IMG/VR virus record: IMGVR_UViG_3300012209_000001
Length of the DNA stretch: 37,616 nucleotides
Strand: one strand, 5' to 3'
Origin: an uncultured virus (IMG/VR IMGVR_UViG_3300012209_000001)
Lineage: Duplodnaviria > Heunggongvirae > Uroviricota > Caudoviricetes
Part shown: one piece after another, positions 1,180 through 31,811 of the stretch
How the letters are laid out: every line of letters starts with the position of its first letter
Numbering within the stretch: the first letter of the stretch is position 1
Position numbers and translations under genes: made by a program
The notes under the pieces: model-generated
Database searches by the model: none
Seen by the model: the letters and a program-made list of their open reading frames with translations, nothing else
What the model was told of the DNA's origin: nothing

Positions 1180-1192
1180 GGTTATTTCTCCT

Positions 1193-3465: not shown

Positions 3466-3466
3466 G

Positions 3467-8901: not shown

Positions 8902-9032
8902 GATTGTGTGTATCCACTTTCCACATATGATAATATTGTTCGTGATGTGTTGTACCTGTGTAATTACACAGGTGTGTGAAATAAGTGCAAGAGCCTGCAT
9001 TGACGGTTGAGAGTCGTGCAGGCTCTTTGCGT

Positions 9033-9314
9033 TTAGTTTGTTCTCATTGCCGCCAGCCGCTTTTCATGGATAGCATTCAGCACTTGGCAACTCTGGCACT
9101 GGCAATCAATAAAGTTGTAGCCTTTAGCGTAGTGAGTCCCACCACAGGGCACGATTACATCACCGCAGAACTCCACCATCTCAATGATACGGTTGCCAGT
9201 ATGTAGGGCAACGCCCCAATCGGTAATGGGTTCGAGGGTGAACTGCTGGCCTTCTTTGACTTCGGGCAGTTCGTCAAGGGCCAGGGTGATAAGTTGCGCT
9301 AGGGCTTCAAACAT
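9033..9314 (-). CDS. hypothetical Zn-binding protein
   Basis: C.G.H...CQCQSC; TAATG coupling. Confidence 0.6.
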   Translation of the reverse strand: MFEALAQLITLALDELPEVKEGQQFTLEPITDWGVALHTGNRIIEMVEFCGDVIVPCGGTHYAKGYNFIDCQCQSCQVLNAIHEKRLAAMRTN

Positions 9315-9751
9315 TATTCATCCTCCTGAGAGTTGAGTATCTCATTCACTTTCTGGACATTTTCATCATCAGTGAGAAAGTTGCCGAGATGCCAACTGCG
9401 ACGACGTATCTGCAGTGCTGTCATAGCAACTTGGAAGTTCTGTTCGTCCAGACTGGTCACGAAATCAACAGGAGAGGCCTGTGTGTATCCTGCGTTAAAC
9501 AAATTGCCTGCCAACTGAATGAGAGCAAGATAGCCACCAGACCAGTGCTCATTGGCTATTAGCTCATCAAACTTGATCCCATCGCGACCCACGTAACTCT
9601 TAGCTCGTTCCCACGTGCCACTATTGGAAGTCAAAATGTATAGTGCCGCCCCGTACTCCTCGTTAATGTGCCCTTCGTAGATTTTTCCGGTTTGTTGAAT
9701 GGCAACAAGGAAACGCTGTCTGTGATTCTCGGATTTGAAAATGATTTTCAT
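9314..9751 (-). CDS. conserved phage protein (DUF2538/DUF6075-like)
   Basis: F.SE.H..RF...EYGAALYILT...WSGG...LAGNLFN pattern; family recalled, not searched. Confidence 0.55.
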   Translation of the reverse strand: MKIIFKSENHRQRFLVAIQQTGKIYEGHINEEYGAALYILTSNSGTWERAKSYVGRDGIKFDELIANEHWSGGYLALIQLAGNLFNAGYTQASPVDFVTSLDEQNFQVAMTALQIRRRSWHLGNFLTDDENVQKVNEILNSQEDE

Positions 9752-10047
9752 TTGTGATCCTCGTACTGCTTGATAATGTGTTGCACCATCTTATGTACTC
9801 GCTCAATATCATCTGGTGTTGGTAACAATCCCTCGCGTTCGAGATAAGCGTGCTCTATCTCGCGCATCTTTGCAAAGAGTTCACTATCGTGTGCAGCCCG
9901 CTCTTCTAGCTCAATCGTCAGGTCAAGGTCGTGGTCATCCCACGGGTGTTTGTCGAAGAGTGCCTGATACAGTGCGATATCATTGGCTCTGCTCAGTTGT
10001 TCGCCACGTTGCGCGGCGGCGATGGCTTGCTCGAAAAAGTCTTTCAC
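9748..10047 (-). CDS. hypothetical protein
   Basis: GTGA/ATGA-coupled ORF. Confidence 0.6.
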   Translation of the reverse strand: MKDFFEQAIAAAQRGEQLSRANDIALYQALFDKHPWDDHDLDLTIELEERAAHDSELFAKMREIEHAYLEREGLLPTPDDIERVHKMVQHIIKQYEDHK

Positions 10048-10580
10048 AATATTTCCTCTTCATCCTCGGTGACTATGAGATCGTTTGCCTTGACCTCGAT
10101 TGTTCCCTTATCGGTGCGGCGTTCCCCTTGCCACTTCACGGAGCCATTCAGGGCATAGCCCCACGGGCTAAGAAAGTGCTGGATAAGAAATTGCAGCCAT
10201 TCTACGTAGTCGTAGAACTTCTCTGCTCCATTCCACTTAATGGCTGTCCCTTGCTCATTAGGTGCCCATTTGCACCATAAGCCAGGAACGCCAGCAGGAG
10301 TGGGGTTATAGTTAACCAGAGCAGGATGATAAGCTGGACGCCCATTGCAGCTATAGTGTGTGAGGCTGATACTGTAATCTGTAATCCCGGTAAAGTAGAT
10401 GCTGAATAAGCCTAATGGTAGTTCTGCTGCTTCGCGTATTGGATCGGGGATAGATGGTAACATGCTCTCATTCCACAGCATATGGCGCGTCTCCGCAAAA
10501 CGCTCAAGGTAGGCTTTGTGTCCTGGCGTTAGTGGTTTGTCTAAATCGAATTGTCCTTCAAATGTTGTCGTGTATCCCAT
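10044..10580 (-). CDS. conserved phage hypothetical protein
   Basis: MGYTTTFEG...PGLWCKW...WNGAEKFYDYVEWLQFLI...LNGSVKWQGE; recalled as a recurring phage family. Confidence 0.7.
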   Translation of the reverse strand: MGYTTTFEGQFDLDKPLTPGHKAYLERFAETRHMLWNESMLPSIPDPIREAAELPLGLFSIYFTGITDYSISLTHYSCNGRPAYHPALVNYNPTPAGVPGLWCKWAPNEQGTAIKWNGAEKFYDYVEWLQFLIQHFLSPWGYALNGSVKWQGERRTDKGTIEVKANDLIVTEDEEEIL

Positions 10581-10597
10581 CGTTAACTTGCTTTCTG

Positions 10598-11107
10598 CTA
10601 GTGGTTGTAAATTGCCGGATTTTCGCAGTTCTTCAATGCCCACTTCACCCACCAGTCTAGCCAGACGAGTCTGGCTAGGATAGGGTCAAGTCCATTGCTA
10701 ACGTAGTCATTGCCCCAATGGAATTCATCAAATCCAGGTTGCGCATCAGGGTGTCTTGCTTTCCATCGGTTGAGGGCCTGCTCAATAGCCAGAGCGTGTT
10801 CAACATGGAGTGCTGTATGTCCAGGGTGCTCACGCATAAGACCGGTTTCACGGTTGAAGAAGAGATCGCGGAGTCCCACCTCATCGCAGAACTCTCCCCA
10901 CTGGCTATAGCCGGGATGTCTGCCATTGCTGTTTTTCGTCATTTCATCGTTGGGGAATGTTGGCGCGTCCGGTTGGTGTATCTCTTTGACCATAGGATCG
11001 TAGTAACAAACTTTGCCATTGACGACGCGAGAGTAGCCTGTGGTGTACTCTTCGTCCTCTTCGATTGGCTCCATTTTGAGTTCGCCGATGTAGATTGAAT
11101 AACTCAT
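10598..11107 (-). CDS. conserved phage hypothetical protein
   Basis: MSYSIYIGE...RHPGYSQWGEFC...RLVWLDWWVKWAL; AGGAGG RBS. Confidence 0.7.
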   Translation of the reverse strand: MSYSIYIGELKMEPIEEDEEYTTGYSRVVNGKVCYYDPMVKEIHQPDAPTFPNDEMTKNSNGRHPGYSQWGEFCDEVGLRDLFFNRETGLMREHPGHTALHVEHALAIEQALNRWKARHPDAQPGFDEFHWGNDYVSNGLDPILARLVWLDWWVKWALKNCENPAIYNH

Positions 11108-11388
11108 GCTTGTGCCTCCTGAACTGTGGTTTGTTGCTTCTCTGCCATAATCGCGGCAATTTGACGATCAACCTTTTCCTGGTGCTTATCGTATCGGGCC
11201 TCAAGCAATGCCTGGTTCTCTGGTGTATCAGGGAGGACAGCATCAGATTTGCAAATGCTACGAACGCCTGTAGACCACTTGACGCGCACATACTCAGTAC
11301 TCTCGCGGGTCCAACTTTCAAGAACAAAGCCTTCGTAGATGCCATCACTGATGTTCTTCTTGAGCACTTTGTCAAATTCTGCGTACAT
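11104..11388 (-). CDS. hypothetical protein
   Basis: GAGGA RBS; coupled ORF. Confidence 0.6.
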   Translation of the reverse strand: MYAEFDKVLKKNISDGIYEGFVLESWTRESTEYVRVKWSTGVRSICKSDAVLPDTPENQALLEARYDKHQEKVDRQIAAIMAEKQQTTVQEAQA

Positions 11389-11390
11389 GA

Positions 11391-11597
11391 TTATTCCTCT
11401 CCCAGCATCTCCCTGATATCGAGGATGTCTCCCATCGCTTGTGTCAGATCCAGGTCTATTTTCTTGAGTGCCAAGTCCTTGTGTAGCGGCGAGAGTGTAT
11501 CTAAGGCACTCTGTACTGTAACCTCAAGATTGTAGATGAGATCACGTAGACGGTCTTCATCGATGCGACTTTGCTTCGTGGTTGCTTCAGCGTTCAT
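11391..11597 (-). CDS. hypothetical protein, first gene of the leftward operon
   Basis: AAAGGG RBS; downstream of a promoter. Confidence 0.6.
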   Translation of the reverse strand: MNAEATTKQSRIDEDRLRDLIYNLEVTVQSALDTLSPLHKDLALKKIDLDLTQAMGDILDIREMLGEE

Positions 11598-11654
11598 ATC
11601 AGCCCTTTCTCATTATAATTCTTGTGTTCAATATCGTACAATCATATTGTCTAA

Positions 11655-11731
11655 ATTATAGATTATGGTACTACTGTATGTCAAGTGCTAACGTTTTATC
11701 GGATTGACGTGATATCATAATTGTGTATAAT
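11655..11731. promoter_or_regulatory. divergent promoters
   Basis: Minus: TTGACA(11684-79)-18-TATAAT(11660-55); plus: TTGACG(11704)-16-TATAAT(11726). Confidence 0.65.
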
Positions 11732-11764
11732 TAAAGACAGAGTAATCAGCCTGAGGAGGGAATC

Positions 11765-11998
11765 ATGAACAAGCAGCAAGATACAATAACATCTCAAGAA
11801 GCAGCCGATATGTTGGGTGTTGAACTTGGCTATCTGTACTTTTTGAATAGAACAAACCAATTGTCGCCTATTCCGCAAAAAACAATAAAGCAAAAGCCAA
11901 GATTGAAATATCGCCGCTCTGATGTTCAGGCATTCTTGGAGAAACAAGAGCAAAAAGCCAAGGAGGATGACTTTCGACACCTCCAACCTGCCAGTTAA
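11765..11998 (+). CDS. MerR-like/HTH_17 DNA-binding protein
   Basis: ITSQEAADMLGV...LKYRRSDVQAF; GAGGAGG RBS. Confidence 0.8.
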   Translation: MNKQQDTITSQEAADMLGVELGYLYFLNRTNQLSPIPQKTIKQKPRLKYRRSDVQAFLEKQEQKAKEDDFRHLQPAS

Positions 11999-12007
11999 AA
12001 ATAAATG

Positions 12008-12044
12008 ATATGGGGCACGTTGCTCTGGTGCCCCGTTATATTTT
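12008..12044. terminator. terminator between convergent units
   Basis: GGGGCAC/GTGCCCC stem with AT-rich flanks. Confidence 0.6.
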
Positions 12045-12133
12045 CCACACATACGATTCCCCAAATATACTTGTAAAGAGTAAGTTACTAAGTTTCGCAG
12101 TTGGTATAAACCCCGTAAAATCGGAGCCTTTTC

Positions 12134-12277
12134 TTACAAATCCTCATTCCAACACGAATACTCTCGCCACAATCCCGGCCAAAATACCAGCGGCCAGCCC
12201 AGCATCAGCAACACGATAGCCAGTGGTACGCTGCCCATGAGGCCGAGTGTGAAGAGTGCGCGATCTCTGCGGTTCAT
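12134..12277 (-). CDS. 47-aa membrane peptide (not in ORF track)
   Basis: MNRRDRALFTLGLMGSVPLAIVLLMLGWPLVFWPGLW...; AGGAG RBS; ATGA overlap. Confidence 0.55.
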   Translation of the reverse strand: MNRRDRALFTLGLMGSVPLAIVLLMLGWPLVFWPGLWREYSCWNEDL

Positions 12278-12549
12278 GATTGCTCCTGATATTCTGCGAG
12301 TGCATCAGTGACTCTTGATCGTAAGTCTGTTTCGTCTGTGTGTTCAATATGGGGCATGCACTCTCGCAAGAGACGCACGATCTTATCGTTCTCTTGTTGT
12401 GTGCGCTCAAAGCGGACAGCCCTCATCATAATCTGTGCCCACGGGAGATCGGCCCGGTCTTTGCGTTTGTGATAGAGATCGAGTAGTTCCGTGGTGGATA
12501 GCTGAAATATGATGCTGTCGTTGACATTGTCTGCTGGCTGGTCTTTCAT
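12274..12549 (-). CDS. hypothetical protein
   Basis: AAGGAG RBS; ATGA overlap. Confidence 0.55.
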   Translation of the reverse strand: MKDQPADNVNDSIIFQLSTTELLDLYHKRKDRADLPWAQIMMRAVRFERTQQENDKIVRLLRECMPHIEHTDETDLRSRVTDALAEYQEQS

Positions 12550-12755
12550 TGGGCACTCCTTGTCACCTCTGCTAGCTGCCACGCCTCGGTTACTTCGCTG
12601 AACGGCACGCTCAAATCCTGCAAGCAGAGCATCATCTGTACCAGAGCGCGGAAGCCTACTTTTTTTTGGTATCTCACTGCAATATCTTCTATTTGTTCTA
12701 TGGTGAATCCTGCTTCTTTGAGTTTTTGTAGTTCTTGAATATCCATCCTCGACAT
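12546..12755 (-). CDS. hypothetical protein
   Basis: AAGGGA RBS. Confidence 0.55.
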   Translation of the reverse strand: MSRMDIQELQKLKEAGFTIEQIEDIAVRYQKKVGFRALVQMMLCLQDLSVPFSEVTEAWQLAEVTRSAQ

Positions 12756-12771
12756 ATCCCTTCTATGGTAT

Positions 12772-12981
12772 TTATTTGACTCTTTTGTTGTCTTGTAGTT
12801 TCTGTTTACCTTTTTCTGTCAGCCGGTACGTGCCGTCTCCTCGGTTGTAGCTCACCCATCCGGGCAACTCCATCTGGTAGAGGCTCGGTAAGTTGCCTTC
12901 GTCTTTCATGTTTCGAATGGTTTGATTGATGCGTCCAAGCGTTGGGTTCCCGTTCCTTTGATACGTTCTCTGCGTATTCAT
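12772..12981 (-). CDS. small winged-helix-like protein
   Basis: GWVSY...GTYRLTEKGKQKL wing motif. Confidence 0.55.
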   Translation of the reverse strand: MNTQRTYQRNGNPTLGRINQTIRNMKDEGNLPSLYQMELPGWVSYNRGDGTYRLTEKGKQKLQDNKRVK

Positions 12982-12983
12982 AC

Positions 12984-13253
12984 CTATATATACTCTTTTG
13001 CTTGTTTACCTTCTTGTAGCCGTTCGCTACACTCAAACCGCTTGTTATAAATTATATCCAGATCAGGATTAGGCGGTCTGTTGAGCAGTGGGTTGTTGCT
13101 CTGTACCGGGCTGCGATAGCGCACTCCATACGGCGATGGTGGCTCCTGCCCGCGTTTATATCGTGGTCGGTAGCCCTTTGTATCGTTTCTGCACAATACG
13201 AGCGATATGATGCAGCAGAACAGTAGTGCAGCCAGGAGTACTATAGCAATCAT
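12984..13253 (-). CDS. membrane-anchored hypothetical protein
   Basis: N-terminal hydrophobic helix; coupled ORF. Confidence 0.55.
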   Translation of the reverse strand: MIAIVLLAALLFCCIISLVLCRNDTKGYRPRYKRGQEPPSPYGVRYRSPVQSNNPLLNRPPNPDLDIIYNKRFECSERLQEGKQAKEYI

Positions 13254-13537
13254 GGCTCGTCCTGCACAGTCTCATAAAGTTCAGCGCACTCCTGGCACAT
13301 TCTGTTTATCTCTGTACTTAGCTGGTCTGTTGGCTTGCGTACGGCACAGTGCATACAGCAGAACGTCTCGTGTTGTGGCTCAGGTGGCAGTGCTGCTCTT
13401 TGCCAGCATTCCTCGCATACTTGCAGAACAAGTACAGCAAAGGCCCATGCAATGAGCGCCTCGACAAAGTGCCTACTAGAGATGAAATCAAAGCCTCTCG
13501 CCAGAATGATACCGAGTAGGGTGATGAGCACGATCAT
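13250..13537 (-). CDS. membrane protein with C-terminal Zn finger
   Basis: Two hydrophobic segments; CMHC...CQEC. Confidence 0.6.
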   Translation of the reverse strand: MIVLITLLGIILARGFDFISSRHFVEALIAWAFAVLVLQVCEECWQRAALPPEPQHETFCCMHCAVRKPTDQLSTEINRMCQECAELYETVQDEP

Positions 13538-13722
13538 AGGGTTTGTTCCTGTTCCAATGGATCACTCGATGGGAAAATCTGTTGAATCTCTTCTTCCGTG
13601 ACTCGTTCTCTCATTCTCCTGGTACGAGATCCCCAGGCATATCCAATGGTGCATCCAATGATGGTTATGACAATGGCTGCCAGGGCTGTCAACTCGTAGG
13701 CGGCAAATGCGGCGCTATTCAT
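13534..13722 (-). CDS. single-pass membrane protein
   Basis: One TM helix; AGGAG RBS; coupled. Confidence 0.55.
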   Translation of the reverse strand: MNSAAFAAYELTALAAIVITIIGCTIGYAWGSRTRRMRERVTEEEIQQIFPSSDPLEQEQTL

Positions 13723-13934
13723 TTCAGTTCTCCTGTCAGGTAGTATCCCTCGCTATCTTCAGCAATGAGCCCTTTCGACAACATTTCATCGAGACGGGTT
13801 GCAACGCTCTCTCTGGTCGGGAAAAGAACAATGTCCCGGCTATCTGGGCCGATTGCATTGCTCCGAACCGTGGCGAACACATCGAATCTCCCATCTTTGT
13901 CCTGAAAGCCAATAATGAGGCTATGTTCGCTCAT
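13719..13934 (-). CDS. hypothetical protein (winged-helix-like C-terminus)
   Basis: GAGGT RBS; RLDEMLSKGLIAE..GYYLT. Confidence 0.5.
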   Translation of the reverse strand: MSEHSLIIGFQDKDGRFDVFATVRSNAIGPDSRDIVLFPTRESVATRLDEMLSKGLIAEDSEGYYLTGELK

Positions 13935-14127
13935 AGGGTACCTCGCTGATACTGCCTTCGACGTAGACGCCCATGTGATCGAAGTGGACATCCGTATTCA
14001 TGTTATTGTAGTTTGAACTTGAGAAAGTAAACGTTTGCTGCTGTTGACGTTGACGTAACTGTTCAATAATTGTGGCGTCCTGGCCGCGAGAATTTTCGAT
14101 GTTGATACTGGTCATATCGGAGTTCAC
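13921..14127 (-). CDS. hypothetical protein
   Basis: GTGA overlap; fills the operon gap. Confidence 0.4.
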   Translation of the reverse strand: MNSDMTSINIENSRGQDATIIEQLRQRQQQQTFTFSSSNYNNMNTDVHFDHMGVYVEGSISEVPYERT

Positions 14128-14273
14128 GGTTTATGCTCGCTTTCGGCCTGATCAGGTTCCTCTTTAAGTTTGTCAGACAGCACTTTGACATCGGCGATAA
14201 GTTGGTTGATCTGTGTTTGTTGTTGGAGCAGCATCTCTTCAATCCGCTCCAACGCTTCAAGAAAAAAATCCAT
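14124..14273 (-). CDS. 49-aa coiled-coil peptide (not in ORF track)
   Basis: MDFFLEALERIEEMLLQQQTQINQLIADVKVLSDKLKEE... Confidence 0.55.
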   Translation of the reverse strand: MDFFLEALERIEEMLLQQQTQINQLIADVKVLSDKLKEEPDQAESEHKP

Positions 14274-14299
14274 GCTGCCCCTGCCTTTCTTCTGGTTGC

Positions 14300-14536
14300 C
14301 TAAGTCGATGGATTGAGCAAGGCGTCAAGTGTCGATTTTTTGATACGGTACGCCTGGCGTGCTCTCACATGGGGAAGTGTTACGGCCTCCAGTGCGCCAC
14401 TTTTAACCCAACGCCTGACCGTTGTATCGTCAACTCGTAACCGGCGCGCAACTTCGCGGACGGTTAGCAATTCATCCGTTGGCTGTTCTATTGACTGTTG
14501 TGCTTTCTGTTTCTTGGCAAGTTTTTCTTGGTTCAT
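14300..14536 (-). CDS. excisionase-like HTH_17 DNA-binding protein
   Basis: LLTVREVARRLRVDDTTVRRWVKSGALEAV...YRIKKSTL. Confidence 0.9.
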   Translation of the reverse strand: MNQEKLAKKQKAQQSIEQPTDELLTVREVARRLRVDDTTVRRWVKSGALEAVTLPHVRARQAYRIKKSTLDALLNPST

Positions 14537-14748
14537 TTCGGTATTTCTACTTTCTTTAATTGTTGCGTTGACATTGGCTCAGTAACATAATCTGATTTGA
14601 TAGCGCGGTGGCTGGTAGTGAGAAGTCCATCATCTTCATCTTCGTAATCGCCAGGTGGGACATCTTCGCCTATGGCCCGGTAGCTGCGCCAGAGGCGAAA
14701 GGGATTAACAGGATTGATTGATCGATGTTTCCGAGAGAATAATTTCAA
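14533..14748 (-). CDS. hypothetical protein
   Basis: Probable TTG start after GAGGA; ATGA overlap downstream. Confidence 0.45.
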   Translation of the reverse strand: MKLFSRKHRSINPVNPFRLWRSYRAIGEDVPPGDYEDEDDGLLTTSHRAIKSDYVTEPMSTQQLKKVEIPK

Positions 14749-14755
14749 TGAATCC

Positions 14756-15421
14756 TCATTCGCAAATGAATTGGTCTCCAAGATACTTGTCAATCACGAC
14801 AAGCACACGCGTACCGGGAAAGAACTTGCCTTCATCCAGCAAGGGACTTAGCGTCAGGTTATTTATAGCCGTCATTTTGATGATGTGAGGCATACAATCA
14901 AAATCTTCAAAAAACTCTTTGTCGGGGTGCAAAGTGATAAAACGTGCCTGGTAGCAGTTGCGTATGGTTTCCTGCCCCTGTTCTATAAGCTTTTGTTGGA
15001 TGTGTTTGAGTTCATCCAGTGCGTCCTGGTAGGTATGATGGTTGCTTGTCGGCTTGTTTGGTTGTTGATCTTGTGTAATATTTTCCATGATTTCTCCGGT
15101 GTTCGGTAATGGTCGCGGTGTATTCGCTTTCTCGATGATGCTATGTGGAAGTGGTGTAATGGGATGCATGATAGTATCTTGATCAGCTAATTGCTGCATG
15201 GTGGGAGACCACGGCGAGATCAGGGGATCAGTATCAGGAAACAGCGTCGTGTCTCTCCTGCTTAGCAACGTCATGAGTTTAGCGTGATACAACTCTAACT
15301 GTTTTTTGACAACAGTCTCGATATACCATTGTCGTTTTTGACGATCATCTTCTTTTCTGCGTAGTTCAGATTCGTCTTTTGTCAATTTGCGTAAAGAGGA
15401 TTGGTTGTCGTGGGTCGCCAT
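14756..15421 (-). CDS. hypothetical protein
   Basis: 221-aa ORF in the operon. Confidence 0.6.
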   Translation of the reverse strand: MATHDNQSSLRKLTKDESELRRKEDDRQKRQWYIETVVKKQLELYHAKLMTLLSRRDTTLFPDTDPLISPWSPTMQQLADQDTIMHPITPLPHSIIEKANTPRPLPNTGEIMENITQDQQPNKPTSNHHTYQDALDELKHIQQKLIEQGQETIRNCYQARFITLHPDKEFFEDFDCMPHIIKMTAINNLTLSPLLDEGKFFPGTRVLVVIDKYLGDQFICE

Positions 15422-15490
15422 AATATTTTCACTTCTTCTACATCCTCACGTCAACGCGAAACAGCCGCGTAGGGCGTTGTGGGTGCTAAA

Positions 15491-15922
15491 CTATAGCTCT
15501 ACAATGTCAATGTTGTAGATCTCCTTCATCAGCTTCTTGCACCGTTTGTGTTCCTGAGACTTCCGTGTTTCAGGAGACTTGATATCTTCGACAATATGTC
15601 TGCCACCAGCTTCCAGATCGTCATAATTGGCATCATCGATGTAGCGCCCTACTTCCACACCGCTAATGACCAGTGGATAGACTGTATGAAATCTAAGGTT
15701 GGTGATTTTACCTGCAGCGGATAGTGCTCGCAGGTCTTTCATTCGCCGATACTCTCGCAGCGAACTAAATGTAACGCTGGGCTCTGTGACACTCTCAGCG
15801 TTACTAGCGTGAAACGGACAGTACTTGCACCGCTTGATCAGAGGATTCCATTCTTCTGGAGTGATATATGCCCCGCAACTACGAGGACATCGATAAATGT
15901 GTGGAACGTACACTTTTGTCAT
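15491..15922 (-). CDS. DUF1064-like PD-(D/E)XK nuclease with N-terminal Zn ribbon
   Basis: FSSLRE...AGKITNL...Y.DDANY...IVEDIK; CPRSC...CKYC. Confidence 0.7.
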   Translation of the reverse strand: MTKVYVPHIYRCPRSCGAYITPEEWNPLIKRCKYCPFHASNAESVTEPSVTFSSLREYRRMKDLRALSAAGKITNLRFHTVYPLVISGVEVGRYIDDANYDDLEAGGRHIVEDIKSPETRKSQEHKRCKKLMKEIYNIDIVEL

Positions 15923-16325
15923 CCGGACACCCCTTCGTTGAGAGAGCCGTGTTCGACAAGGAAGCATACAAGCGCCTGACGCCACTGGTTTGATCGGAAT
16001 GAGTGGTACTTTTGGTATAACCTGAGCAAGTAACCAGACTCCAACCGTGTAAAATCTGAATTGGAATATTCGAGACTTGACCACACAGTCATGGAGAAAT
16101 CATGACTGAAAATTGTGGGAAGGAAGATGTGAGTATGTGGAACCCTGGCGTGTCTCATGTGAGAACGCCTTGGAAGGAAGTAACCAATACCAGTAATATC
16201 AAGAGATGCCCAAATATACAAATACATAACGTCTATCCACACATCAACTATCCAGGAAACGACATCTAAAGCCAATAGGATATGATATACTGTGTGTTGT
16301 TATAATTAACAACGACAACTTGCTA

Positions 16326-16355
16326 AGTATAGTCCGCTGTTATCGGACTTGTCAA
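16326..16355 (-). promoter_or_regulatory. leftward promoter with operator in the spacer
   Basis: TTGACA-18-TATACT; palindrome AGTCCG-N7-CGGACT at 16331-16349. Confidence 0.7.
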
Positions 16356-16434
16356 GGGAAAATCTATCATTCTCTTATCATTTTCTTAACAGTGTTTTTG
16401 TATGTAATAGTCTCATTAAAGGAGAGACATTCTT

Positions 16435-16875
16435 GTGATCCAACATCAGCCGCCACCAGGCATTTGCTATGAAGACTATGATGGAAAGCGTTTTTGTGAG
16501 GTAATTGCCTCCTTTGTGCAGCAGTCCGGTCTCTCTCAGTCTAGGATTGTTGAGCGAGCTAATGAACGATCTCGCGAAAGCGCCATTTACATGCTTGCTC
16601 CAAATTTACAGCGTTCCACGTTGAGCCGTCTTGTACGAGGCATTGATTCAGTGAGTAATCTCACGCTCTACCGTATTGCACGCCTTGGGCTGGGTCTTCC
16701 TGAAGAGACGTGTACTTGGCTCGAACGATTACGGCAGATGGAAGCACCTGTTAACCACACGACGCAGCCTCGCAACGTCGTTGTAGCCCCACAAAAGCAT
16801 ACTTCGCACAAAGATGGTGAGTCCGAACCCCCAAAAGTGCCTTTCTGGATAAACGAAATCTCTATTGTTCTCTAG
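16435..16875 (+). CDS. XRE-like HTH transcriptional regulator
   Basis: SGLSQSRIV...LQRSTLSRLVRG; AAAGGAG RBS. Confidence 0.65.
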   Translation: MIQHQPPPGICYEDYDGKRFCEVIASFVQQSGLSQSRIVERANERSRESAIYMLAPNLQRSTLSRLVRGIDSVSNLTLYRIARLGLGLPEETCTWLERLRQMEAPVNHTTQPRNVVVAPQKHTSHKDGESEPPKVPFWINEISIVL

Positions 16876-16957
16876 TCTTGTTACACTACCATGCTGTATC
16901 ATGCTAGTGGCTTGAAATTCAACAAACTGTGTTCTCAAGCCGATTGATAGTCAATGT

Positions 16958-16976
16958 AGTCAGGAGATACCGGACT
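16958..16976. promoter_or_regulatory. second copy of the operator
   Basis: AGTCAG-N7-CGGACT; half-sites differ by one base from the 16331 site. Confidence 0.55.
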
Positions 16977-16986
16977 ATTATGGAGC

Positions 16987-17496
16987 ATGAGTATGGAGGT
17001 GCTGAGATTGTCTGACTTGCCTACCGGCGAGGGAAAGACGTTCAGACAGAAGGAAAACTTGAATAGGTTAGGTCGGTGGGTAGAGGCGCTCAATACCATC
17101 CTGGGCACAAACCAAACAGAAATGGCCGGGCGCATTGGCATCGTGAAACAAACGCTTTCAGATGCGACGCGGGGGAAAGGTGGAGCTGGAAGAGAAACGA
17201 TTCTTGCGCTTGCCGAAAAGTATCGCTTGTTGGCAGAGTCCAGGGGTGTAACACTACCTGTGGCATGGGAACTCTTCTTTAGTGTCTCCTGGTTTGATAG
17301 TAGCGAGGTAATTGGTGGTGCGGATCAGACACTAGAAAGTTTGGAGTTTGTAGCGTCAGTTATCAAGGAACGTGACATGCTTAGGCGTAACATTGTAAAA
17401 GAACGAACAAGAAAGGAAGAATTAGCTCGTGAGAATCAGATTTTGCGTCGAGAGAACCGTGCCATGAAAAAGGAGATTGAGCGACTCAGGGGATAA
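16987..17496 (+). CDS. XRE-family HTH repressor with C-terminal coiled coil
   Basis: GTNQTEMAGRIGIVKQTLSDATRG; heptad-rich C-terminus. Confidence 0.7.
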   Translation: MSMEVLRLSDLPTGEGKTFRQKENLNRLGRWVEALNTILGTNQTEMAGRIGIVKQTLSDATRGKGGAGRETILALAEKYRLLAESRGVTLPVAWELFFSVSWFDSSEVIGGADQTLESLEFVASVIKERDMLRRNIVKERTRKEELARENQILRRENRAMKKEIERLRG

Positions 17497-17594
17497 GAGG
17501 GAACTCTTAGCTTATCTGGCTTTTCAAACTAATGGTTCCCTCTCAAAAAAACATATCCAGTTGATTATAACGTCTTTCCATGTTTTGTAAAGTG

Positions 17595-17631
17595 AGGCCG
17601 CTTCTCATGCGAGATAGCGGCCTTTTTGTTT
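17595..17631 (+). terminator. intrinsic terminator
   Basis: AGGCCGCT...AGCGGCCT stem followed by a T tract. Confidence 0.7.
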
Positions 17632-17716
17632 GAAGATTCCCCATTGGACGATAACATTGTTAACTACTTGTTAACGCGTTGTTGCGGCAGCTTGTATGCT
17701 ATTGCAACTTGGCTGA

Positions 17717-17956
17717 TTATGATTGCCGCTTTTGTTCTGTACTGTCGTTTTCAGTTTCGCTCTCTTGTTTCGGTTTGTAGCCAGCGATGAGCCCGTCTTT
17801 GTAATGGACTCGCATAATCATTGGCAGGTCTTGTCTATCTGCTTCTCGCTCGGCTTCTTCACGTAGTTGAGCAACCCGATAACTGGGAAAGCGTGCATAG
17901 AGACGTTGCCCGGCTTCATAGCCCTGATTAAAAGTTAACTGATAATTGATTGACAC
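17717..17956 (-). CDS. hypothetical protein
   Basis: GGGAGG RBS before GTG. Confidence 0.55.
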   Translation of the reverse strand: MSINYQLTFNQGYEAGQRLYARFPSYRVAQLREEAEREADRQDLPMIMRVHYKDGLIAGYKPKQESETENDSTEQKRQS

Positions 17957-18067
17957 CGGTTCTACCTCCCTGTGATACAATCTAACGTGCTGGATGCCCA
18001 TCCTAAAGTGCTAGCCGACGCTCTGAATGCGACCAGAGCGTTAGGCAGTGCTGAACTCTATAACCCC

Positions 18068-18337
18068 TCACAAACTAGAATGCTCGTCTTCCATCGCCTC
18101 AGACAACGAACCACCATCCAAGGCAAAACGATCATCTGTAATGTGGTCTGTTCCGATGTCGGCTGCATGAGGCATTTCTATCAACTCTAGCCCGTATGCC
18201 TTGAGGTTGCCAAGTTGAGGTGCGTCTTCTGGAATTGTCCACGTCTTAGTGAGTGAGTCCCATTTGCAGAGACGTTTAGCATATTTGAGTCCTCTGGCAT
18301 AATCGTTTTTAATTGGCCTGACAGCGATTAGTAACAT
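18068..18337 (-). CDS. hypothetical protein
   Basis: GAGGAG RBS; KWDSLTKTW motif. Confidence 0.55.
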   Translation of the reverse strand: MLLIAVRPIKNDYARGLKYAKRLCKWDSLTKTWTIPEDAPQLGNLKAYGLELIEMPHAADIGTDHITDDRFALDGGSLSEAMEDEHSSL

Positions 18338-18350
18338 TGCTATTGCTCCT

Positions 18351-18614
18351 CTACATCTCGATCTTCTGGTGTTCATTAATATGTTGTGCGAACTGCTCAT
18401 AAGAGAGTCGTGTTACGTTGCTATCGGTACCAAAGCAAGCAGTACTGGCAATGCGTACCGTCCCCTGTCCATCAGACTCAAAGTTGACACTCTTACGCCC
18501 CAGGATGTTTGCACCGAATAATTCACGCTGTTGTGCTGCTGTCAACTTGTGATAGTCGTCGCCTTCCAGATCGTTCATCGCTGCGATTGCCGCTACATCG
18601 TACTTGGTAATCAT
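18351..18614 (-). CDS. hypothetical protein
   Basis: AAGGAG RBS; downstream of a promoter. Confidence 0.6.
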   Translation of the reverse strand: MITKYDVAAIAAMNDLEGDDYHKLTAAQQRELFGANILGRKSVNFESDGQGTVRIASTACFGTDSNVTRLSYEQFAQHINEHQKIEM

Positions 18615-18678
18615 CCCATCTCTCCTTAATTGAATTGTTGGGAGTAATCCGTTTTCAAAACAGGAAACCTCCTTAATT

Positions 18679-18710
18679 TAATAATACCGTACATACGTTG
18701 ATTTTGTCAA
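18679..18710 (-). promoter_or_regulatory. leftward promoter, twin of 19866-19897
   Basis: TTGACAAAATCAACGTATGTACGGTATTATTA on the minus strand. Confidence 0.8.
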
Positions 18711-18711
18711 G

Positions 18712-19161
18712 TCAAGAGGCTTTAGATTTTTGTATCCAATAGTTAACGATTTGGTTAGTAATTCCCAAATGTTCAGCTACTTCTCTATTGGTCAAACCTT
18801 GTTCATGCAATTGCAATGCTCGCTCTCGCATCTCTGGAGGATAGGTTTTTGAGCGTCCGACCTCTGGCGATAACTCAACTGACTTGAGGCTATCAACATA
18901 ATAGAGATTAGCTACATCTGTACGTACGCCCTCTATTTTCCCTGTAACAAAAAGCCGATACACCGCATCTCTGGAATAATCTCGTCCCGTCCGCTCTTTC
19001 AGGATTGCGCGTGCGCCTTTCGTCGTCGTTGCCTCTTTTCCGTTGATTGTGATAGTTTTTATTACATCGCCAGGTCTGTTTTGCTTTGGCTGGCCCTTAG
19101 ATGCTTTCAATTCTCTCTCCTCTAATAATTCCAACTTATGTTGTATTTGTAAGTCTACCAT
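18712..19161 (-). CDS. two-domain DNA-binding regulator (MerR-like plus C-terminal HTH)
   Basis: YSRDAVYRL..TGKI; YPPEMRERALQLHEQGLTNREVAEHLGITNQIVNYW. Confidence 0.75.
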   Translation of the reverse strand: MVDLQIQHKLELLEERELKASKGQPKQNRPGDVIKTITINGKEATTTKGARAILKERTGRDYSRDAVYRLFVTGKIEGVRTDVANLYYVDSLKSVELSPEVGRSKTYPPEMRERALQLHEQGLTNREVAEHLGITNQIVNYWIQKSKAS

Positions 19162-19192
19162 AGCGTTTCTCCTCTCTCAAGTTCAAGTATAT

Positions 19193-19221
19193 TTGACAAA
19201 ATCATCATACCATGATATTAT
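19193..19221 (+). promoter_or_regulatory. promoter for the HNH gene
   Basis: TTGACA-17-TATTAT; shares TTGACAAAATCA with the twin promoters. Confidence 0.65.
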
Positions 19222-19253
19222 GACAAATACAACATAAGTATGGAGGTTTGGTA

Positions 19254-19829
19254 ATGGACACGTATGAACTTGCACGTTTGCGAGGAGATATTGCACTACT
19301 TGCACGAACCCCGAATAAAGCACGTGAAATAGTGCAGACGCTTACCGAAACTGATTGGGAATATGTTATCGGTGAGCAGGACGAGCCACATGTGGAGTGT
19401 TTAATCTGCAAGAATCTCTACTTGCCGGGGCACTATGATATTCTTTCTTGTCATTTTAATATGTGTCACGACTGTAGAGAGAAAAGGGGGTGGGATAATA
19501 GGAAAACCTTGAATAAGGAAAATAGAAAGTTTCATTTTAATCTGGAAAGAGCGAGGGTGAAAGGTCTTCCTGCTACCTTGACATTTCCTGAATGGATTAT
19601 GACGCTTGAGCACTTTCAATGGAAATGTGCCATTTGCCAGATCAACCCCTATCAGGTGGAGGATCATTTTGTACCTCTTATTCATAGTGGAGGTACAACG
19701 CGAGGAAACATCATTCCTCTTTGTCGCGCTTGTGACAAGCACAAAGGGTGGAAACTTCCCGGTGAAATCACTGGACTCTCTCAAGATGCTATACAGCGTG
19801 TATATACCTACCTCCAGCAATTTTCCTGA
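19254..19829 (+). CDS. HNH endonuclease with Zn ribbon
   Basis: CAIC...EDHFVPL..GGTT.GNIIPLCRACD; N-terminal CLIC/CHDC. Confidence 0.85.
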   Translation: MDTYELARLRGDIALLARTPNKAREIVQTLTETDWEYVIGEQDEPHVECLICKNLYLPGHYDILSCHFNMCHDCREKRGWDNRKTLNKENRKFHFNLERARVKGLPATLTFPEWIMTLEHFQWKCAICQINPYQVEDHFVPLIHSGGTTRGNIIPLCRACDKHKGWKLPGEITGLSQDAIQRVYTYLQQFS

Positions 19830-19865
19830 ATCTTAGAAAATACGTTGATTTTACCCTCAAAAACA

Positions 19866-19897
19866 TTGACAAAATCAACGTATGTATGGTATTATTA
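19866..19897 (+). promoter_or_regulatory. rightward promoter of the recombination/early operon
   Basis: TTGACAAAATCAACGTATGTATGGTATTATTA; extra inverted half-site at 19840-19852. Confidence 0.8.
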
Positions 19898-19975
19898 GAG
19901 AGTAAGAAGAAACAAAAACGCTCGCCGAGCGACCAAGCATCAAGCGAGCGAAACATCCTAAGAAGGAGTATTCAA

Positions 19976-20485
19976 ATGGTACAGCAGACAGAGAAGATGA
20001 GCAACCTACTAGCCTATTTTGAGAGGGCAATTGACCAGATCGTTATTGATGTAGATTTTGCCGAAAAGAGCCGTGGAACCATCGCAATCGTCCCGGCCTC
20101 CGGTGGTGATGACCCATACATCGTTACTGTTGATGAGAGTGGCGACGTGCCGTGTGCCGTGAATTGTACCTGCAATGATCGGTATTATCGCAAAAGCTAC
20201 TGCAAGCATATGCAAATAATAGACCTCTACTATCAGCGTATCGCTGATATCTTCGCTCACGATGAGCCAGTTGTCACCGAGCCAACCCCAGATGAGATTG
20301 CTGCCCAGCATGATCTCTCATACATTGAGGCGATCACTGCTGCGTACGAAATGATCGGGGCTGAGAAACATGTCCATTGTGGAGGCTGTAGGCAGATTTG
20401 CGGCGAGGGCAAGGGCGACCGATGTAAGCCCGGCTTCTGCTTCTGGAATAGCTTCTGGACAGAGGCGCAGCGCAATGCTGCATGA
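19976..20485 (+). CDS. SWIM zinc-finger protein
   Basis: YIVTV...CTCNDRYYRKSYCKH; AAGGAG RBS. Confidence 0.8.
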   Translation: MVQQTEKMSNLLAYFERAIDQIVIDVDFAEKSRGTIAIVPASGGDDPYIVTVDESGDVPCAVNCTCNDRYYRKSYCKHMQIIDLYYQRIADIFAHDEPVVTEPTPDEIAAQHDLSYIEAITAAYEMIGAEKHVHCGGCRQICGEGKGDRCKPGFCFWNSFWTEAQRNAA

Positions 20486-24679: not shown

Positions 24680-25639
24680 ATGCAAGACATCGTAATTTAT
24701 CAAACAAAAGAGGTTATGACGCTAGATCAATGTATTCTAGCCTGGATTGCCGCCAAGAAAGGGAGATCAAACAGTAGCAAGACAGAAAAAGCCTATCGAG
24801 AAACACTTGGACAGTTTCGTTTGCTGTTGCAGGGGTATAAACGTGATCTCGATAGTGATCCTGGTATTATTGCGCCGCTGGCCCAGGGGTGGGCAGAGCA
24901 GACCACCAGTACACGACGTACTGAGGTGACACCTGCAACGTATAACCAGCGTCTAGCAATTCTCTCAAGCTTCTATGAGTATGCGATCAAAAATGAAGTG
25001 CTGCAGCGTAACCCGATTGAACGTGTAGAGCGGCGTAATCCAAACAAACAATATCAAGCCAAACAAATTGATACCAAGAAAGTTAAAACCGGCCTGGCTG
25101 CCATTGATCGCTCTACAGATGAAGGTAAGCGGGATTATGCAATCCTGAGTATTATGCTGGCAACTGGAAAGCGTGTGTCAGAAATTGCCAATATTCTTTA
25201 TGGGGATATCCAAAAGCAGGGTGATACTGTGCTTCTCTCCTGGCCTCGATGTAAGGGAAACAAAAAACTTGATCCTGACGTGCTGAAAGAAAAGACAACG
25301 AGGGTTCTATACGAATATCTCCATATGTCTTATGGCTCAAAACTTGGACATTTGGCAAATGATGCGCCGATCTGGCTTTCCTTCTCAGATCGCAATAAAG
25401 GAAAGCAGATAGGAGCACGAACAATCCAGCGAATCTGCGAGACATATCTTGGTACGTCAAAAGCGCACGCGACTAGACACACCTGGGCCGTTGCTATGAT
25501 GAACCAGAATGCTACCCTTGCTCAAATTGGGCGCGGGCTCGGACACTCCAATTTGAAAACAACCTCAGACTACCTTGAAGAGTTGAGCGCCTATGAGAAT
25601 CCGTATGCAAGCGCGTTAGAAGATATGTTTGGGATATAG
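24680..25639 (+). CDS. tyrosine recombinase / integrase (XerCD-like)
   Basis: TYNQRLAILSSFYEY; catalytic TGKRVSE, HATRHT, LGHS, TTSDY. Confidence 0.93.
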   Translation: MQDIVIYQTKEVMTLDQCILAWIAAKKGRSNSSKTEKAYRETLGQFRLLLQGYKRDLDSDPGIIAPLAQGWAEQTTSTRRTEVTPATYNQRLAILSSFYEYAIKNEVLQRNPIERVERRNPNKQYQAKQIDTKKVKTGLAAIDRSTDEGKRDYAILSIMLATGKRVSEIANILYGDIQKQGDTVLLSWPRCKGNKKLDPDVLKEKTTRVLYEYLHMSYGSKLGHLANDAPIWLSFSDRNKGKQIGARTIQRICETYLGTSKAHATRHTWAVAMMNQNATLAQIGRGLGHSNLKTTSDYLEELSAYENPYASALEDMFGI

Positions 25640-26196: not shown

Positions 26197-26657
26197 GTGA
26201 GTACGAAACACTCGATCTGGACGAAGAGGAAGAAGAAGAAACCGATGAAGGGTGGCAAGAATACTGGCTTGTGGTTGGAGGCGTGAGCAAGAAATCTGAA
26301 CAGGCTATTGAATCAGTCGATGGCAAAGTCTTACGTATGACAGCATCCACTCGTGGCTACACACGACAACTTCAGGAGACAAGAATCAATACTTATTACC
26401 CTGGGGTTCCTCCTATCTATGCCGTGTGCCTGCTCTACCTTCCAGACGATGATGATCAGGGATTCAGTTTCTTTACCGATGATGGAGAGAAGGCCCGTCA
26501 TTTTTTCATTGCCTCTGCTGATGAGCACCATGATCTGTATATCTATTGCGACGATGGTTCTATTCCACGATTTGAATCAGATACAACGCAGCTCCGCTTA
26601 GTTACCGAGGAAGAATGGTTTGCTATTGCAGACGCGAAGGGGGAAAGTAAGTCATGA
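26193..26657 (+). CDS. acidic hypothetical protein
   Basis: GGAGG RBS; ATGA coupling. Confidence 0.6.
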   Translation: MSEYETLDLDEEEEEETDEGWQEYWLVVGGVSKKSEQAIESVDGKVLRMTASTRGYTRQLQETRINTYYPGVPPIYAVCLLYLPDDDDQGFSFFTDDGEKARHFFIASADEHHDLYIYCDDGSIPRFESDTTQLRLVTEEEWFAIADAKGESKS

Positions 26658-26938
26658 GTGAGAGGTTTCAAGCTCTATCAGATGGCTATAGCTGGAAAGT
26701 CATTGACACCGAAATCACACATTTTATCCGTGGGCGCGGACATGTCGTCCATCACGTCCAGTGGTGCCAGGATGAGCAAGAAGCGTGCAGCATCGCTGAT
26801 AACCTTAATAAGACACGAGGGCACGCAGCTAACGAACCGAAATGTTGTGTTTGCGGCTCGCAACCTGCCGGGCCTGCCGGTGAAGAGAATCCGCGTTGTG
26901 GCCCCTGCTGGTCCAAATTGGCAGACATGCATGGATAG
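26654..26938 (+). CDS. hypothetical protein with Zn finger
   Basis: CCVCG...CGPC. Confidence 0.6.
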   Translation: MSERFQALSDGYSWKVIDTEITHFIRGRGHVVHHVQWCQDEQEACSIADNLNKTRGHAANEPKCCVCGSQPAGPAGEENPRCGPCWSKLADMHG

Positions 26939-27152
26939 AGAAACGATGAGGCAAGAACTACAAACCCGTCTCTGGCAACACGACAACCTCTGGCGCATTC
27001 AGTCCCTTCGCCAACTACAGGACCGTCACGGCACGCTGCAAGATGCCTGGGAGAGCCGCCGTGACGAGGATGGGCACGTTCTGTTCTTCGAGACGGAGGA
27101 GCAGGCCAGGGAGCATATGGACAGTGAAGCAAAGAAAGTTGAGGAAGAATAA
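26931..27152 (+). CDS. hypothetical protein
   Basis: MDRETMRQELQ...FETEEQAREH; overlaps the upstream stop. Confidence 0.55.
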   Translation: MDRETMRQELQTRLWQHDNLWRIQSLRQLQDRHGTLQDAWESRRDEDGHVLFFETEEQAREHMDSEAKKVEEE

Positions 27153-27427
27153 TGGAAGACGAAATAGCATCACGTGACCTACCAGATGGACGCCGGGCCT
27201 ATATCATCCACTTAACCTATGGTCGGGCCCGTATCTGCATTGCTAACAAATATTGTCCCATGAGCATCGACAACTCGTATTGATATGCTACTCCTGAGCT
27301 TGCAGTTAGCAAGTTAAACGAGTGGGACGTTGAAAAAGAAGCAGAACCCGATGGCTGGTTCCGTAGCCCCAATACTGGCAGGCGAAGACCAGATGGTGAC
27401 GCGAGCAAAGAATATATCTCATGGTGA
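27152..27427 (+). CDS. 91-aa protein with in-frame TGA at codon 44 (candidate selenoprotein, or pseudogene)
   Basis: TAATG coupling; GAGGA RBS; frame continues 47 codons past the TGA to just before a terminator. Confidence 0.6.
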
Positions 27428-27438
27428 TCGCTAGTACA

Positions 27439-27479
27439 ATAAAGGTGCCCGTATGTCTCCCCAGACCCGGCACCTTTAT
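27439..27479 (+). terminator. terminator-like hairpin closing the recombinase operon
   Basis: ATAAAGGTGCC/GGCACCTTTAT 11-bp stem. Confidence 0.7.
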
Positions 27480-28959: not shown

Positions 28960-29181
28960 TTAGTCTTTAACGTACAAATTTTCGACGTTTTCCAAAGTGA
29001 GCTTTTCGCCAAGCTTTTCACTAAGCGTATTTAACACTTTGTAAGCGAACAGAGTAGACACTGCGTTCTTTTCCTTCCCACTCTCCAACCGATTTACGGT
29101 TGATATGGACACTCCGGCGTTGCTAGCCAGATCAAACACAGACCATCCTGCTCTTTTTCGTAATTCTTTCAAATTAGACAT
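28960..29181 (-). CDS. XRE/Cro-like HTH regulator
   Basis: NLKELRKRAGWSVFDLASNAGVSISTVNRLESG; AAAGGAG RBS. Confidence 0.9.
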   Translation of the reverse strand: MSNLKELRKRAGWSVFDLASNAGVSISTVNRLESGKEKNAVSTLFAYKVLNTLSEKLGEKLTLENVENLYVKD

Positions 29182-29224
29182 GCGAATATCTCCTTTTTTA
29201 ATTTGAAATATCTGTGGCATGCCT

Positions 29225-29329
29225 ATGGTATCTACCGAGTACGACACTGTCAATAAATGCTCCCTTATGTTCCTATGTCAGATATATCTGTGATACACCA
29301 TTGACAAAACGAAGTATAACAGGTATAAT
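29225..29329. promoter_or_regulatory. divergent promoter switch of replication module 2
   Basis: Minus TTGACA(29253)-17-TACCAT; plus TTGACA(29301)-17-TATAAT; palindrome CAGATATATCTG at 29279-29290. Confidence 0.75.
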
Positions 29330-30962: not shown

Positions 30963-31811
30963 ATGAGACGGAGACAGAAACTCATTGTAGGCAGGAAACA
31001 ACCGCCTAAGAACACGCACGCCGTCAGAAACGAACAGCGTATTCAAGAGTTGCGAACCATGTCCTATCAGGAATACCTACAAACGCCAGAGTGGGCAGCC
31101 AAACGCCAGCAAATCTTAATACGAGATGAGCACCGATGCCGAGTGTGCAATGGCGGTGAGCAATTAAATGTGCACCATCGCACTTACGAGAGACGTGGAG
31201 ACGAAGATTTAAACGACCTGACCACGTTATGCCAGCCCTGCCATGAGTACTTTCATAACCGAAAAGAGCAGGTATCACTTGAACAATTCATAGACCCATT
31301 CAGACGTAACAGTTTTAGAACGTTCAATCCGCGCGTCCCCGGTGTGCAAGAAGCATTTCAGGAATGCGCTGAGTACGCCCGTGACCCGGACGGCTGGTTA
31401 CTCCTGGTAGGGCCATCCGGTTGTGGTAAAACACACTTAGCAACGGCTATAGCCAAGCAGTGCAAAGAAAGAGGAGCGAGTGTATTAAGTTATTCTGTCC
31501 CTGATCTCTTAGATTTCTTGCGCTCAACATCTACCTACTATGAAACATTCAAGCAGATAAAAGAGGTTGAAGTACTGGTATTAGACGACCTGGGAATGCA
31601 ACAAGGTTCACCGTGGGTAACAGAAAAGCTTTTCCAACTTTTTAATCATCGTTACATTTCAGGTTTGCCAACGATTATTATAGCTAGCATTAAAGGATTG
31701 CAAGAACTTGACGAGCGTATTCGCTCCCGCCTCTCCGACAATAGCTTAGTAACGCCGATCATTTTCGAAGATACGCGTGATTATCGGCCCAATCACCCAC
31801 AGCGAGACTAA
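30963..31811 (+). CDS. HNH domain fused to DnaC/IstB-like ATPase
   Basis: YLQTPEW..KR...RDEHRCRVC...VHHRTY...LCQPCH; GPSGCGKT; VLVLDDLG; RIRSRL; DYR. Confidence 0.85.
   Translation: MRRRQKLIVGRKQPPKNTHAVRNEQRIQELRTMSYQEYLQTPEWAAKRQQILIRDEHRCRVCNGGEQLNVHHRTYERRGDEDLNDLTTLCQPCHEYFHNRKEQVSLEQFIDPFRRNSFRTFNPRVPGVQEAFQECAEYARDPDGWLLLVGPSGCGKTHLATAIAKQCKERGASVLSYSVPDLLDFLRSTSTYYETFKQIKEVEVLVLDDLGMQQGSPWVTEKLFQLFNHRYISGLPTIIIASIKGLQELDERIRSRLSDNSLVTPIIFEDTRDYRPNHPQRD

Follow-up and report, generated by a model that had tools for sequence, protein, structure and literature searches.

Gene organization at the locus

The stretch of DNA analysed here, called the window throughout, measures 37,616 nucleotides. 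It comes from a temperate tailed phage of soil metagenomes, and has a GC content of 47.5%. DnaB- and DnaC-like genes and an endolysin gene (annotation by Pfam and PHROGs) are found in the window in addition to the elements of the integrase region, which are as follows.

24680-25639, plus strand: integrase, first gene of the plus-strand operon
27141-27145, plus strand: Shine-Dalgarno-like GAGGA, 6 nt 5' of the ATG, read from the sequence
27152-27427, plus strand: whole gene, with 91 sense codons, one of them UGA (selenocysteine proposed), ending at TGA 27425-27427
27281-27283, plus strand: in-frame UGA, codon 44, proposed to specify selenocysteine; the residue falls in strand beta-4
27297-27315, plus strand: SECIS-type hairpin, 7-bp stem AGCUUGC/GCAAGUU, loop AGUUA (from folding and clade comparison)
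27439-27479, plus strand: strong hairpin 3' of the gene, likely a transcription terminator (-22.5 kcal/mol, z -4.5)
28960-29253, minus strand: HTH repressor

The gene at 27152-27427 closes the tightly packed plus-strand integrase operon, which starts at 24680. Its ATG overlaps the TAA of the upstream gene (TAATG, 27150-27154). The reading frame begins with MEDEIAS, runs for 43 codons to DNSY, meets the TGA at 27281-27283, and continues for 47 sense codons up to the TGA at 27425-27427. As none of its 47 codons is ATG, GTG or TTG, the second half lacks an independent start. An initial annotation of the same DNA had described an open reading frame placed at the TAATG overlap behind a GAGGA ribosome-binding site, interrupted by a single TGA followed by 47 protein-like codons that lack an own start, and the reading frame agrees with it on each of these points. 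The operon terminator also placed there after the gene is matched by the strong hairpin at 27439-27479, which likely acts as a transcription terminator; a separate U-run is missing, and the hairpin does not appear in the list made by the terminator scan.

A near-identical 80-kb IMG/VR record (G001) adds genes for a large terminase and tail-fibre-like proteins. This record gives no independent evidence on the gene, because it is 100% identical to positions 4200-37616 of the window.

A family of small phage proteins

The read-through protein is matched by no Pfam, PHROG or NCBIfam model. Homologues spanning the TGA were found by tblastn in cultured phages, namely Sinorhizobium phage Phosso (XYS97833.1), the Caulobacter jumbo phages BL47 (gp271c) and CcrBL9 (gp257c), and the Brevundimonas jumbo phage Bambus (BAMBUS_01390). 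The four proteins, all annotated as hypothetical, are 31-40% identical to the read-through product, and share its length and motifs. All four aligned homologues carry Cys, encoded by TGY, at the column of the TGA, within a [YW]-C-[YF] motif. A profile search retrieved 1084 cluster representatives at E<=1e-3; nearly all of these measure 90-115 aa, and the matches span both halves of the protein. The motif of the homologues, [WYF]-C-[YF]...W...EP.GW.R.P..GRRRP.GD...EY, corresponds to the one given in the initial annotation. The window protein is a full-length profile match to the family, and keeps 13 nearly invariant columns.

Residues at column 44 vary among the top 150 protein relatives: 88 have Cys, 31 Asp, 7 Glu, 4 Trp, 4 Gln, and a few others occur. 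The early suggestion that the TGA sits at a conserved Cys holds as far as Cys is the commonest residue, and fails as a statement of strict conservation, given the 31 Asp and 7 Glu. Asp or Glu at a catalytic Sec/Cys site is unusual. Cys, Asp, Glu and, at the TGA, putatively Sec alternate at the position, and a conserved second Cys is missing; for these reasons residue 44 is tentatively viewed as a nucleophile or a ligand-binding residue, rather than as part of a CxxC-type redox pair.

Folding of the 91-aa read-through protein, based on a 43-sequence alignment, predicts a single compact domain (pLDDT 95.5, pTM 0.85) made of four strands, one helix and a conserved C-terminal segment, with residue 44 in strand beta-4. 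According to this model the gene product would be a small beta-meander-plus-helix domain. A product ending at the TGA would be only half of this domain, because the codon falls mid-way in the single folded unit. No fold search rose above noise, the top matches being at E 0.3 with Foldseek and, with VIA, LolB at Z 5.0 and AcrF1 at Z 4.7, and an atlas search with a natural Cys-form returned clusters of hypothetical proteins only. Family members reside in early or accessory phage modules, and the genes next to them, where annotated, serve mostly in DNA metabolism and regulation. No conserved partner gene was seen among the 82 same-strand neighbours scanned (of 143 computed), 17 of which have a PHROG match.

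Codons found at the UGA column in related DNA

Members of the family with TGA at the column (TGA-forms) are invisible as full-length proteins in protein databases, and loci had therefore to be read at the DNA level. Three DNA collections were scanned by combining a 12-sequence alignment (A4), the pattern GRRRPDGD and confirmation by tblastn. A first viral scan with a 3-sequence alignment had confirmed nothing; A4 was used because the 43-sequence alignment is too diverse for pattern scans. TGA was found at the column in 18 of 45 readable loci from viral contigs (48 fetched), in 2 of 6 from a one-genome-per-species collection (8 fetched), and in 52 of 76 from metagenome contigs, the latter being the best 80 of 119 loci and a set enriched for the subfamily of the window. 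The tally left out L135, which is mis-registered, and the column could not be read in L054, L055, L057, L105, L119 and L134.

Pooled and de-duplicated, the collections yield 120 distinct loci, of which 71 have TGA, 39 a Cys codon (TGY) and 10 other codons (GAC, GAG, TAY, AAC, ACT, TCC). TAA, TAG and TGG are found at the column in none of the 120. This tabulation, recommended when the gene was first noted, contradicts the possibility raised at the time that the TGA is unique to this genome. Identity among the TGA-forms is only about 40-60%, and their GC content spans 42% to 80%; none of the 71 has a second stop within 25 codons upstream or 40 codons downstream. A quick tree of the loci, from which L036 and L052 (truncated) and L060 (same record as L031) were dropped, is poorly resolved and compatible with a single origin of all TGA-forms, so that the 71 loci do not count as 71 independent events.

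TGA serves also as a regular stop in the same genes and in the same phage. A second TGA terminates 16 of 21 TGA-forms, and TGA terminates 9 of the 28 window ORFs that reach 150 aa, and a sense reading would add 16-164 codons to the 9. Decoding at the column is therefore context-dependent, and does not reflect a changed genetic code.

Two side observations concern single relatives. Trp is found at the column in 4 of 150 database proteins (three identified: P0004, P0025, P0104), as against TGG in 0 of 120 DNA loci, and P0004 and P0025 also have A-V codons typical of TGA-forms; the Trp-bearing proteins are probably TGA-forms called under a table in which TGA means Trp (table 4). The metagenome relative L105 (958-1228, 61% identity) has a match length that is not a multiple of three, and no GRRRP anchor was found in frame; this copy could be frameshifted or wrongly assembled.

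A conserved hairpin downstream of the UGA

TGA-forms are marked by a hairpin at a fixed distance from the codon. Numbering from the U of UGA as 1, the dinucleotide G-U is found at nt 25-26 in 66 of 71 TGA-forms, compared with 6 of 49 other loci (Fisher 2e-20). In 57 of 71 TGA-forms and 4 of 49 others, the G-U is enclosed by 6 bp or more of uninterrupted stem. The loop, which starts 20 nt after the UGA in the family, is of the GGUC type in 36 TGA-forms, CGUGA in 9 and AGUU in 7.

The window carries a minority variant, in which 27297-27303 pairs with 27309-27315 (-8.0 kcal/mol) and the loop is the 5-nt AGUUA (27304-27308), with G27305 and U27306 at nt 25-26. The z-score of the fold is -3.0 for 60 nt, and -0.87 in a 101-nt context. 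Loose hairpin criteria are satisfied by 6 of the 63 window TGAs flanked by 35 open codons on both sides, and the hairpin alone is therefore not diagnostic; what rises above chance is the comparative signal. No Rfam model matches near the site.

In bacterial SECIS elements a hairpin of 5/6 bp carries a G that is invariant in its loop (PMC4607533), and 16-37 nt separate the UGA from the apical loop (PMC10778597). The family hairpin fits the SECIS geometry, because its 20 nt fall in the 16-37 nt range and a G resides in the loop of a short hairpin.

Two other stems had been drawn in the initial annotation, one of 5 bp just 3' of the UGA, the other of 8 bp enclosing it. Both can form in the window (5/5 and 8/8 pairs), and neither is conserved, relatives keeping 3-4 of 5 and 4-6 of 8 pairs. 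The notion that one of them is the functional hairpin is thus not borne out; the conserved structure is that at 27297-27315. The 8-bp complementarity (27240-27247 with 27305-27312), is perfect in the window and in the metagenome contig L068 that has the same sequence. This pairing would sequester the SECIS loop and the 3' arm. It could compete with the hairpin at 27297-27315 and modulate recoding in the phage of the window, or be there by chance.

Covariation and covariance model

Stem residues change in a concerted fashion. In alignment A5 (19 sequences) 29 cells are changed on both sides of the stem, compared with 11.6+-2.7 in shuffles (0/500), and the covariation score is 0.42, versus 0.07-0.20 in slid registers. 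The pair 21-30, which links two synonymous third-codon positions, exhibits 5 pair types in the same alignment. In A6 (59 distinct rows) 65 cells are changed on both sides, compared with 31.2+-4.9 in shuffles (0/500). Covariation of the hairpin, proposed earlier as a check, is hence documented by compensatory changes in A5, in A6 and in the clade of the window (see below).

A covariance model (R1) was built from the window and 18 viral loci only; its E-values are rough. Among 93 sources R1 found 36 matches at E<=0.01, all at TGA-form sites, and 34 of the 36 are in metagenome or genome loci other than those used for training, though L068 repeats the sequence of the window. The best match to a Cys-form has an E of 0.044. 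The window, itself part of the training set, scores 31.6 bits, other members up to 48. R1 had no match at E<=1 in the E. coli fdhF or host selD regions; this was to be expected, because the model carries the coding sequence and the spacing of the family, but counts as a negative result all the same.

Sequence conservation and base call in the clade of the window

The closest relatives of the window are L068 (same sequence), L069 (87% identity) and L070 to L079 (56-63% identity). TGA and a 5-nt NGUNA loop are kept in all of them. Each of 10 clade members keeps 6-7 of the 7 stem pairs, and stems differ by compensatory changes (CUUGC/GCAAG, CUUGC/GUGAG, CUCGC/GCGAG). After the TGA, pN/pS measures 0.16-0.31 in 10/10 clade pairs, and 0.16-0.30 when codons beyond the hairpin are considered; differences between the window and L069 are distributed as 4/4/15 over the three codon positions. 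The protein downstream of the TGA is thus under purifying selection, the opposite of the relaxed selection that had been named beforehand as evidence against a selenoprotein.

The codon at 27281-27283 is covered without differences by contigs from sequencing runs X4, X6 and X8, which belong to 3 studies and all read TGA, as the base-call check suggested at the start had called for; one of the three runs may correspond to the source sample, and run X9 does not cover the codon. Word depth in the runs is low, at 3-7x. RNA runs are absent from the sequencing runs listed for the locus. Soil runs X6, X8 and X9 hold also more divergent copies, which match the family gene over 39-90 nt with 5-9 differences. 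Several family variants coexist in these soils, since the diverged matches continue into different flanks.

Selenocysteine machinery in carrier genomes

The window has neither tRNA nor tRNA-Sec genes, and the 80-kb phage record has no tRNA, no tRNA-Sec, no sel genes and no host flank. Two TGA-forms come from Chloroflexota MAGs: L058, which at 55% identity is nearer to the window than any other relative from outside its clade, belongs to a Thermomicrobiales MAG, and L062 to another Chloroflexota MAG; the contigs that carry them (6.4 kb and, separately, 58.6 kb) are tied to the MAGs by binning only. In both genomes (G002 and G003) selA, selB, selD and tRNA-Sec are all found above curated cut-offs. 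The three Cys-form carrier genomes tested also have the Sec machinery, and its presence therefore does not discriminate between the forms.

In both MAGs the selD gene is interrupted by an in-frame TGA, beyond which lie hairpins with GGUC and CGUGA apices; SelD is itself a selenoprotein there. Compared with the phage gene, the host selD loops are farther from the UGA, by 12 nt. In the two selD loci (L066 in G003, L067 in G002) the UGA is the 11th codon of the matched frame, the SECIS stem is GGCGCA/UGCGCC, and G-U lies at nt 37-38.

All five carriers of the family (G002-G006, with L058, L062, L059, L060 and L061) have selA, selB, selD and tRNA-Sec above cut-offs, and Sec protein families are found in 1-2 of 14 control genomes, versus 5/5 carriers. 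This could reflect a link between the family and hosts that use Sec, or chance. Among 401 genomes of the phylum of G002 the only carriers are G002 and G003, and an association test has no power. The best relatives of the terminase are 48-49% identical and reside in genomes of 68-73% GC, as compared with 47.5% in the window. None of three such genomes reaches the selB cut-off (G222 scores 225 bits, the cut-off being 242), a result uninformative on the host of the window phage.

Proposed decoding of the UGA and alternative readings

UGA, hairpin and downstream protein sequence are conserved together across many diverged phage relatives. On the strength of these comparisons, the gene at 27152-27427 very probably encodes a 91-residue phage protein in which the UGA at codon 44 is decoded as selenocysteine by the machinery of the host. 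The hairpin at 27297-27315, in frame and 20 nt after the UGA, would present G-U in its loop and be bound by SelB of the host, loaded with Sec-tRNA(Sec); the ribosome would then insert Sec at codon 44, and read on to the true stop at 27425. We infer SelB binding, selenium incorporation and a Sec pathway in the host of the window phage. The selenoprotein interpretation, already advanced in the initial annotation, gains support from the tally of TGA and Cys codons, the covarying hairpin linked to the TGA, the selection on the downstream codons and the confirmed base call. If it is correct, the full-length protein depends on the Sec trait of the host and on selenium supply. The balance tips slightly towards a wider reading, in which the TGA-forms make up a widespread family of bacteriophage-encoded selenoproteins from soil phages, some of them Chloroflexota-linked, which carry their own SECIS and need SelA, SelB, SelC and SelD from the host. 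As the gene closes the integrase operon of a temperate phage, the UGA could work as a sensor of the state of the host.

Conserved UGA and hairpin denote recoding, not the identity of the inserted residue. The UGA might be decoded as Cys, Trp or Ser, by a SelB/SECIS-dependent or a near-cognate route, or read through inefficiently as a regulatory gate, in which case the 43-residue product would predominate, and the gene, which ends the integrase operon, would yield the full-length protein only if Sec-tRNA is at hand. Relatives do tolerate Cys, Asp and Glu at the site, and the 8-bp alternative pairing could mask the hairpin in the window. However, that pairing is degenerate in relatives (4-6 of 8 pairs), the hairpin has the geometry and the loop of bacterial SECIS elements, including the GGUC of fdhF, the alternation of TGA with Cys codons is the classic Sec pattern, and the 43-residue fragment amounts to half of a single predicted domain. 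We regard decoding as a standard residue, or a gate, as improbable.

Chances are slimmer still that translation simply ends at the TGA, because of a nonsense mutation in a pseudogene or because the gene has only 43 residues, and that the downstream frame is a decaying remnant. One base change separates TGA from TGY or TGG, gene callers stop at the TGA, and this was the favoured reading while protein databases alone had been searched. Decay is contradicted by a TGA present in 71 of 120 loci that are only about 40-60% identical and free of other stops, by a downstream pN/pS of 0.16-0.31, and by a hairpin that co-occurs with the TGA. The usual marks of pseudogenes (a lesion not conserved among relatives, further lesions, relaxed selection) were not found. 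The early pseudogene reading was dropped once DNA-level loci were read, together with the idea that Trp was the ancestral residue.

It is very unlikely that TGA is a sense codon throughout, under table 4 or 25, in either the phage or the bacterium it infects, or that it is read by a phage suppressor tRNA. Trp at the column in 4 of 150 database proteins, such as P0004, would fit this view; in contrast, TGA terminates 9 of 28 large window ORFs and 16 of 21 TGA-form genes, tRNA genes are absent from the window and from the 80-kb record, and TGG is never found at the column in the 120 DNA loci. A sequencing or assembly error at 27283, suggested by the low word depth (3-7x) in the runs, is scarcely credible, as contigs of three studies cover the codon without differences, and L068 and relatives at 56-87% identity have TGA as well.

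Relation to known selenoprotein genes

The family resembles E. coli fdhF (codon 140) in having an in-frame UGA with a hairpin located just downstream, inside the open reading frame, and a UGA that aligns with Cys. The E. coli K-12 gene, read directly, features GCA-GGUC-UGC, with GGUC at nt 22-25; the GGUC loop of the family starts 2 nt further. G23 and U24 are presumably the SelB contacts in fdhF. The GGUC loop is common to fdhF and 36 of 71 family members; the clade of the window has instead the 5-nt NGUNA. Unlike fdhF-type bacterial selenoprotein genes, the family is phage-borne, lacks a Pfam, NCBIfam or PHROG model, and includes relatives that tolerate Asp or Glu. Viral and metagenomic Cys-forms, unlike TGA-forms, are mostly devoid of the SECIS-type hairpin.

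Virus-encoded selenoproteins relying on the Sec machinery of the host are known in the glutathione peroxidases of poxviruses (molluscum contagiosum, fowlpox; PMC8310308); in the phage family the same dependence is predicted. Poxvirus selenoproteins belong to eukaryotic viruses, feature a SECIS of eukaryotic type, and are encoded by genes captured from a known family of cellular enzymes. In contrast, the phage family is found in viruses infecting bacteria, has a SECIS of bacterial type, and has no known cellular enzyme counterpart. Poxvirus selenoproteins are the ones named in a 2021 review of viral recoding (PMC8310308). No bacteriophage selenoprotein was found in the full-text literature, a scope outside which most subscription journals fall.

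If confirmed, the family would extend selenocysteine recoding to the viruses of bacteria. It would also indicate that phage genomes hold genes split or truncated by standard annotation, as the TGA-forms surfaced in DNA only, and that the fitness or the host range of a phage could hinge on a trait of some bacteria and on the availability of selenium. For the study of SelB specificity, dozens of natural SECIS variants (GGUC, AGUU and CGUGA loops) are available here in one protein context, together with a small, confidently folded protein in which Cys, Asp, Glu and, as predicted, Sec alternate at one site.

Other features of the window

Blastn of the locus and of positions 1-20000 of the window found no match in cultured phages, and neither did tblastn of a 518-aa ORF. 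The window reaches 4199 bases past the start of the 80-kb record, and the boundary of the latter falls inside a 519-aa ORF (3467-5026). Positions 1-4199, which are outside that record, carry DnaB-like and DnaC-like genes. Two DnaC-like helicase-loader genes reside in one phage, at 1193-2083 (minus strand) and 30963-31808 (plus strand); the N-terminal part of the product of the second also matches HNH-endonuclease PHROGs.

Upstream of the gene analysed, the ORF listing shows a 164-aa GTG ORF (26658-27152) overlapping a 94-aa ORF (the two regions of the window being 26654-26938 and 26933-27152). The interval 26654-27152 is likelier to hold two small genes joined by a ATGGATAG overlap, the second starting at ATG 26933. 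In the 80-kb record, the locus L008 (41-3430, minus strand) encodes a protein of 1129 aa, in which residues 690-821 form a Hint module of the intein/hedgehog type.
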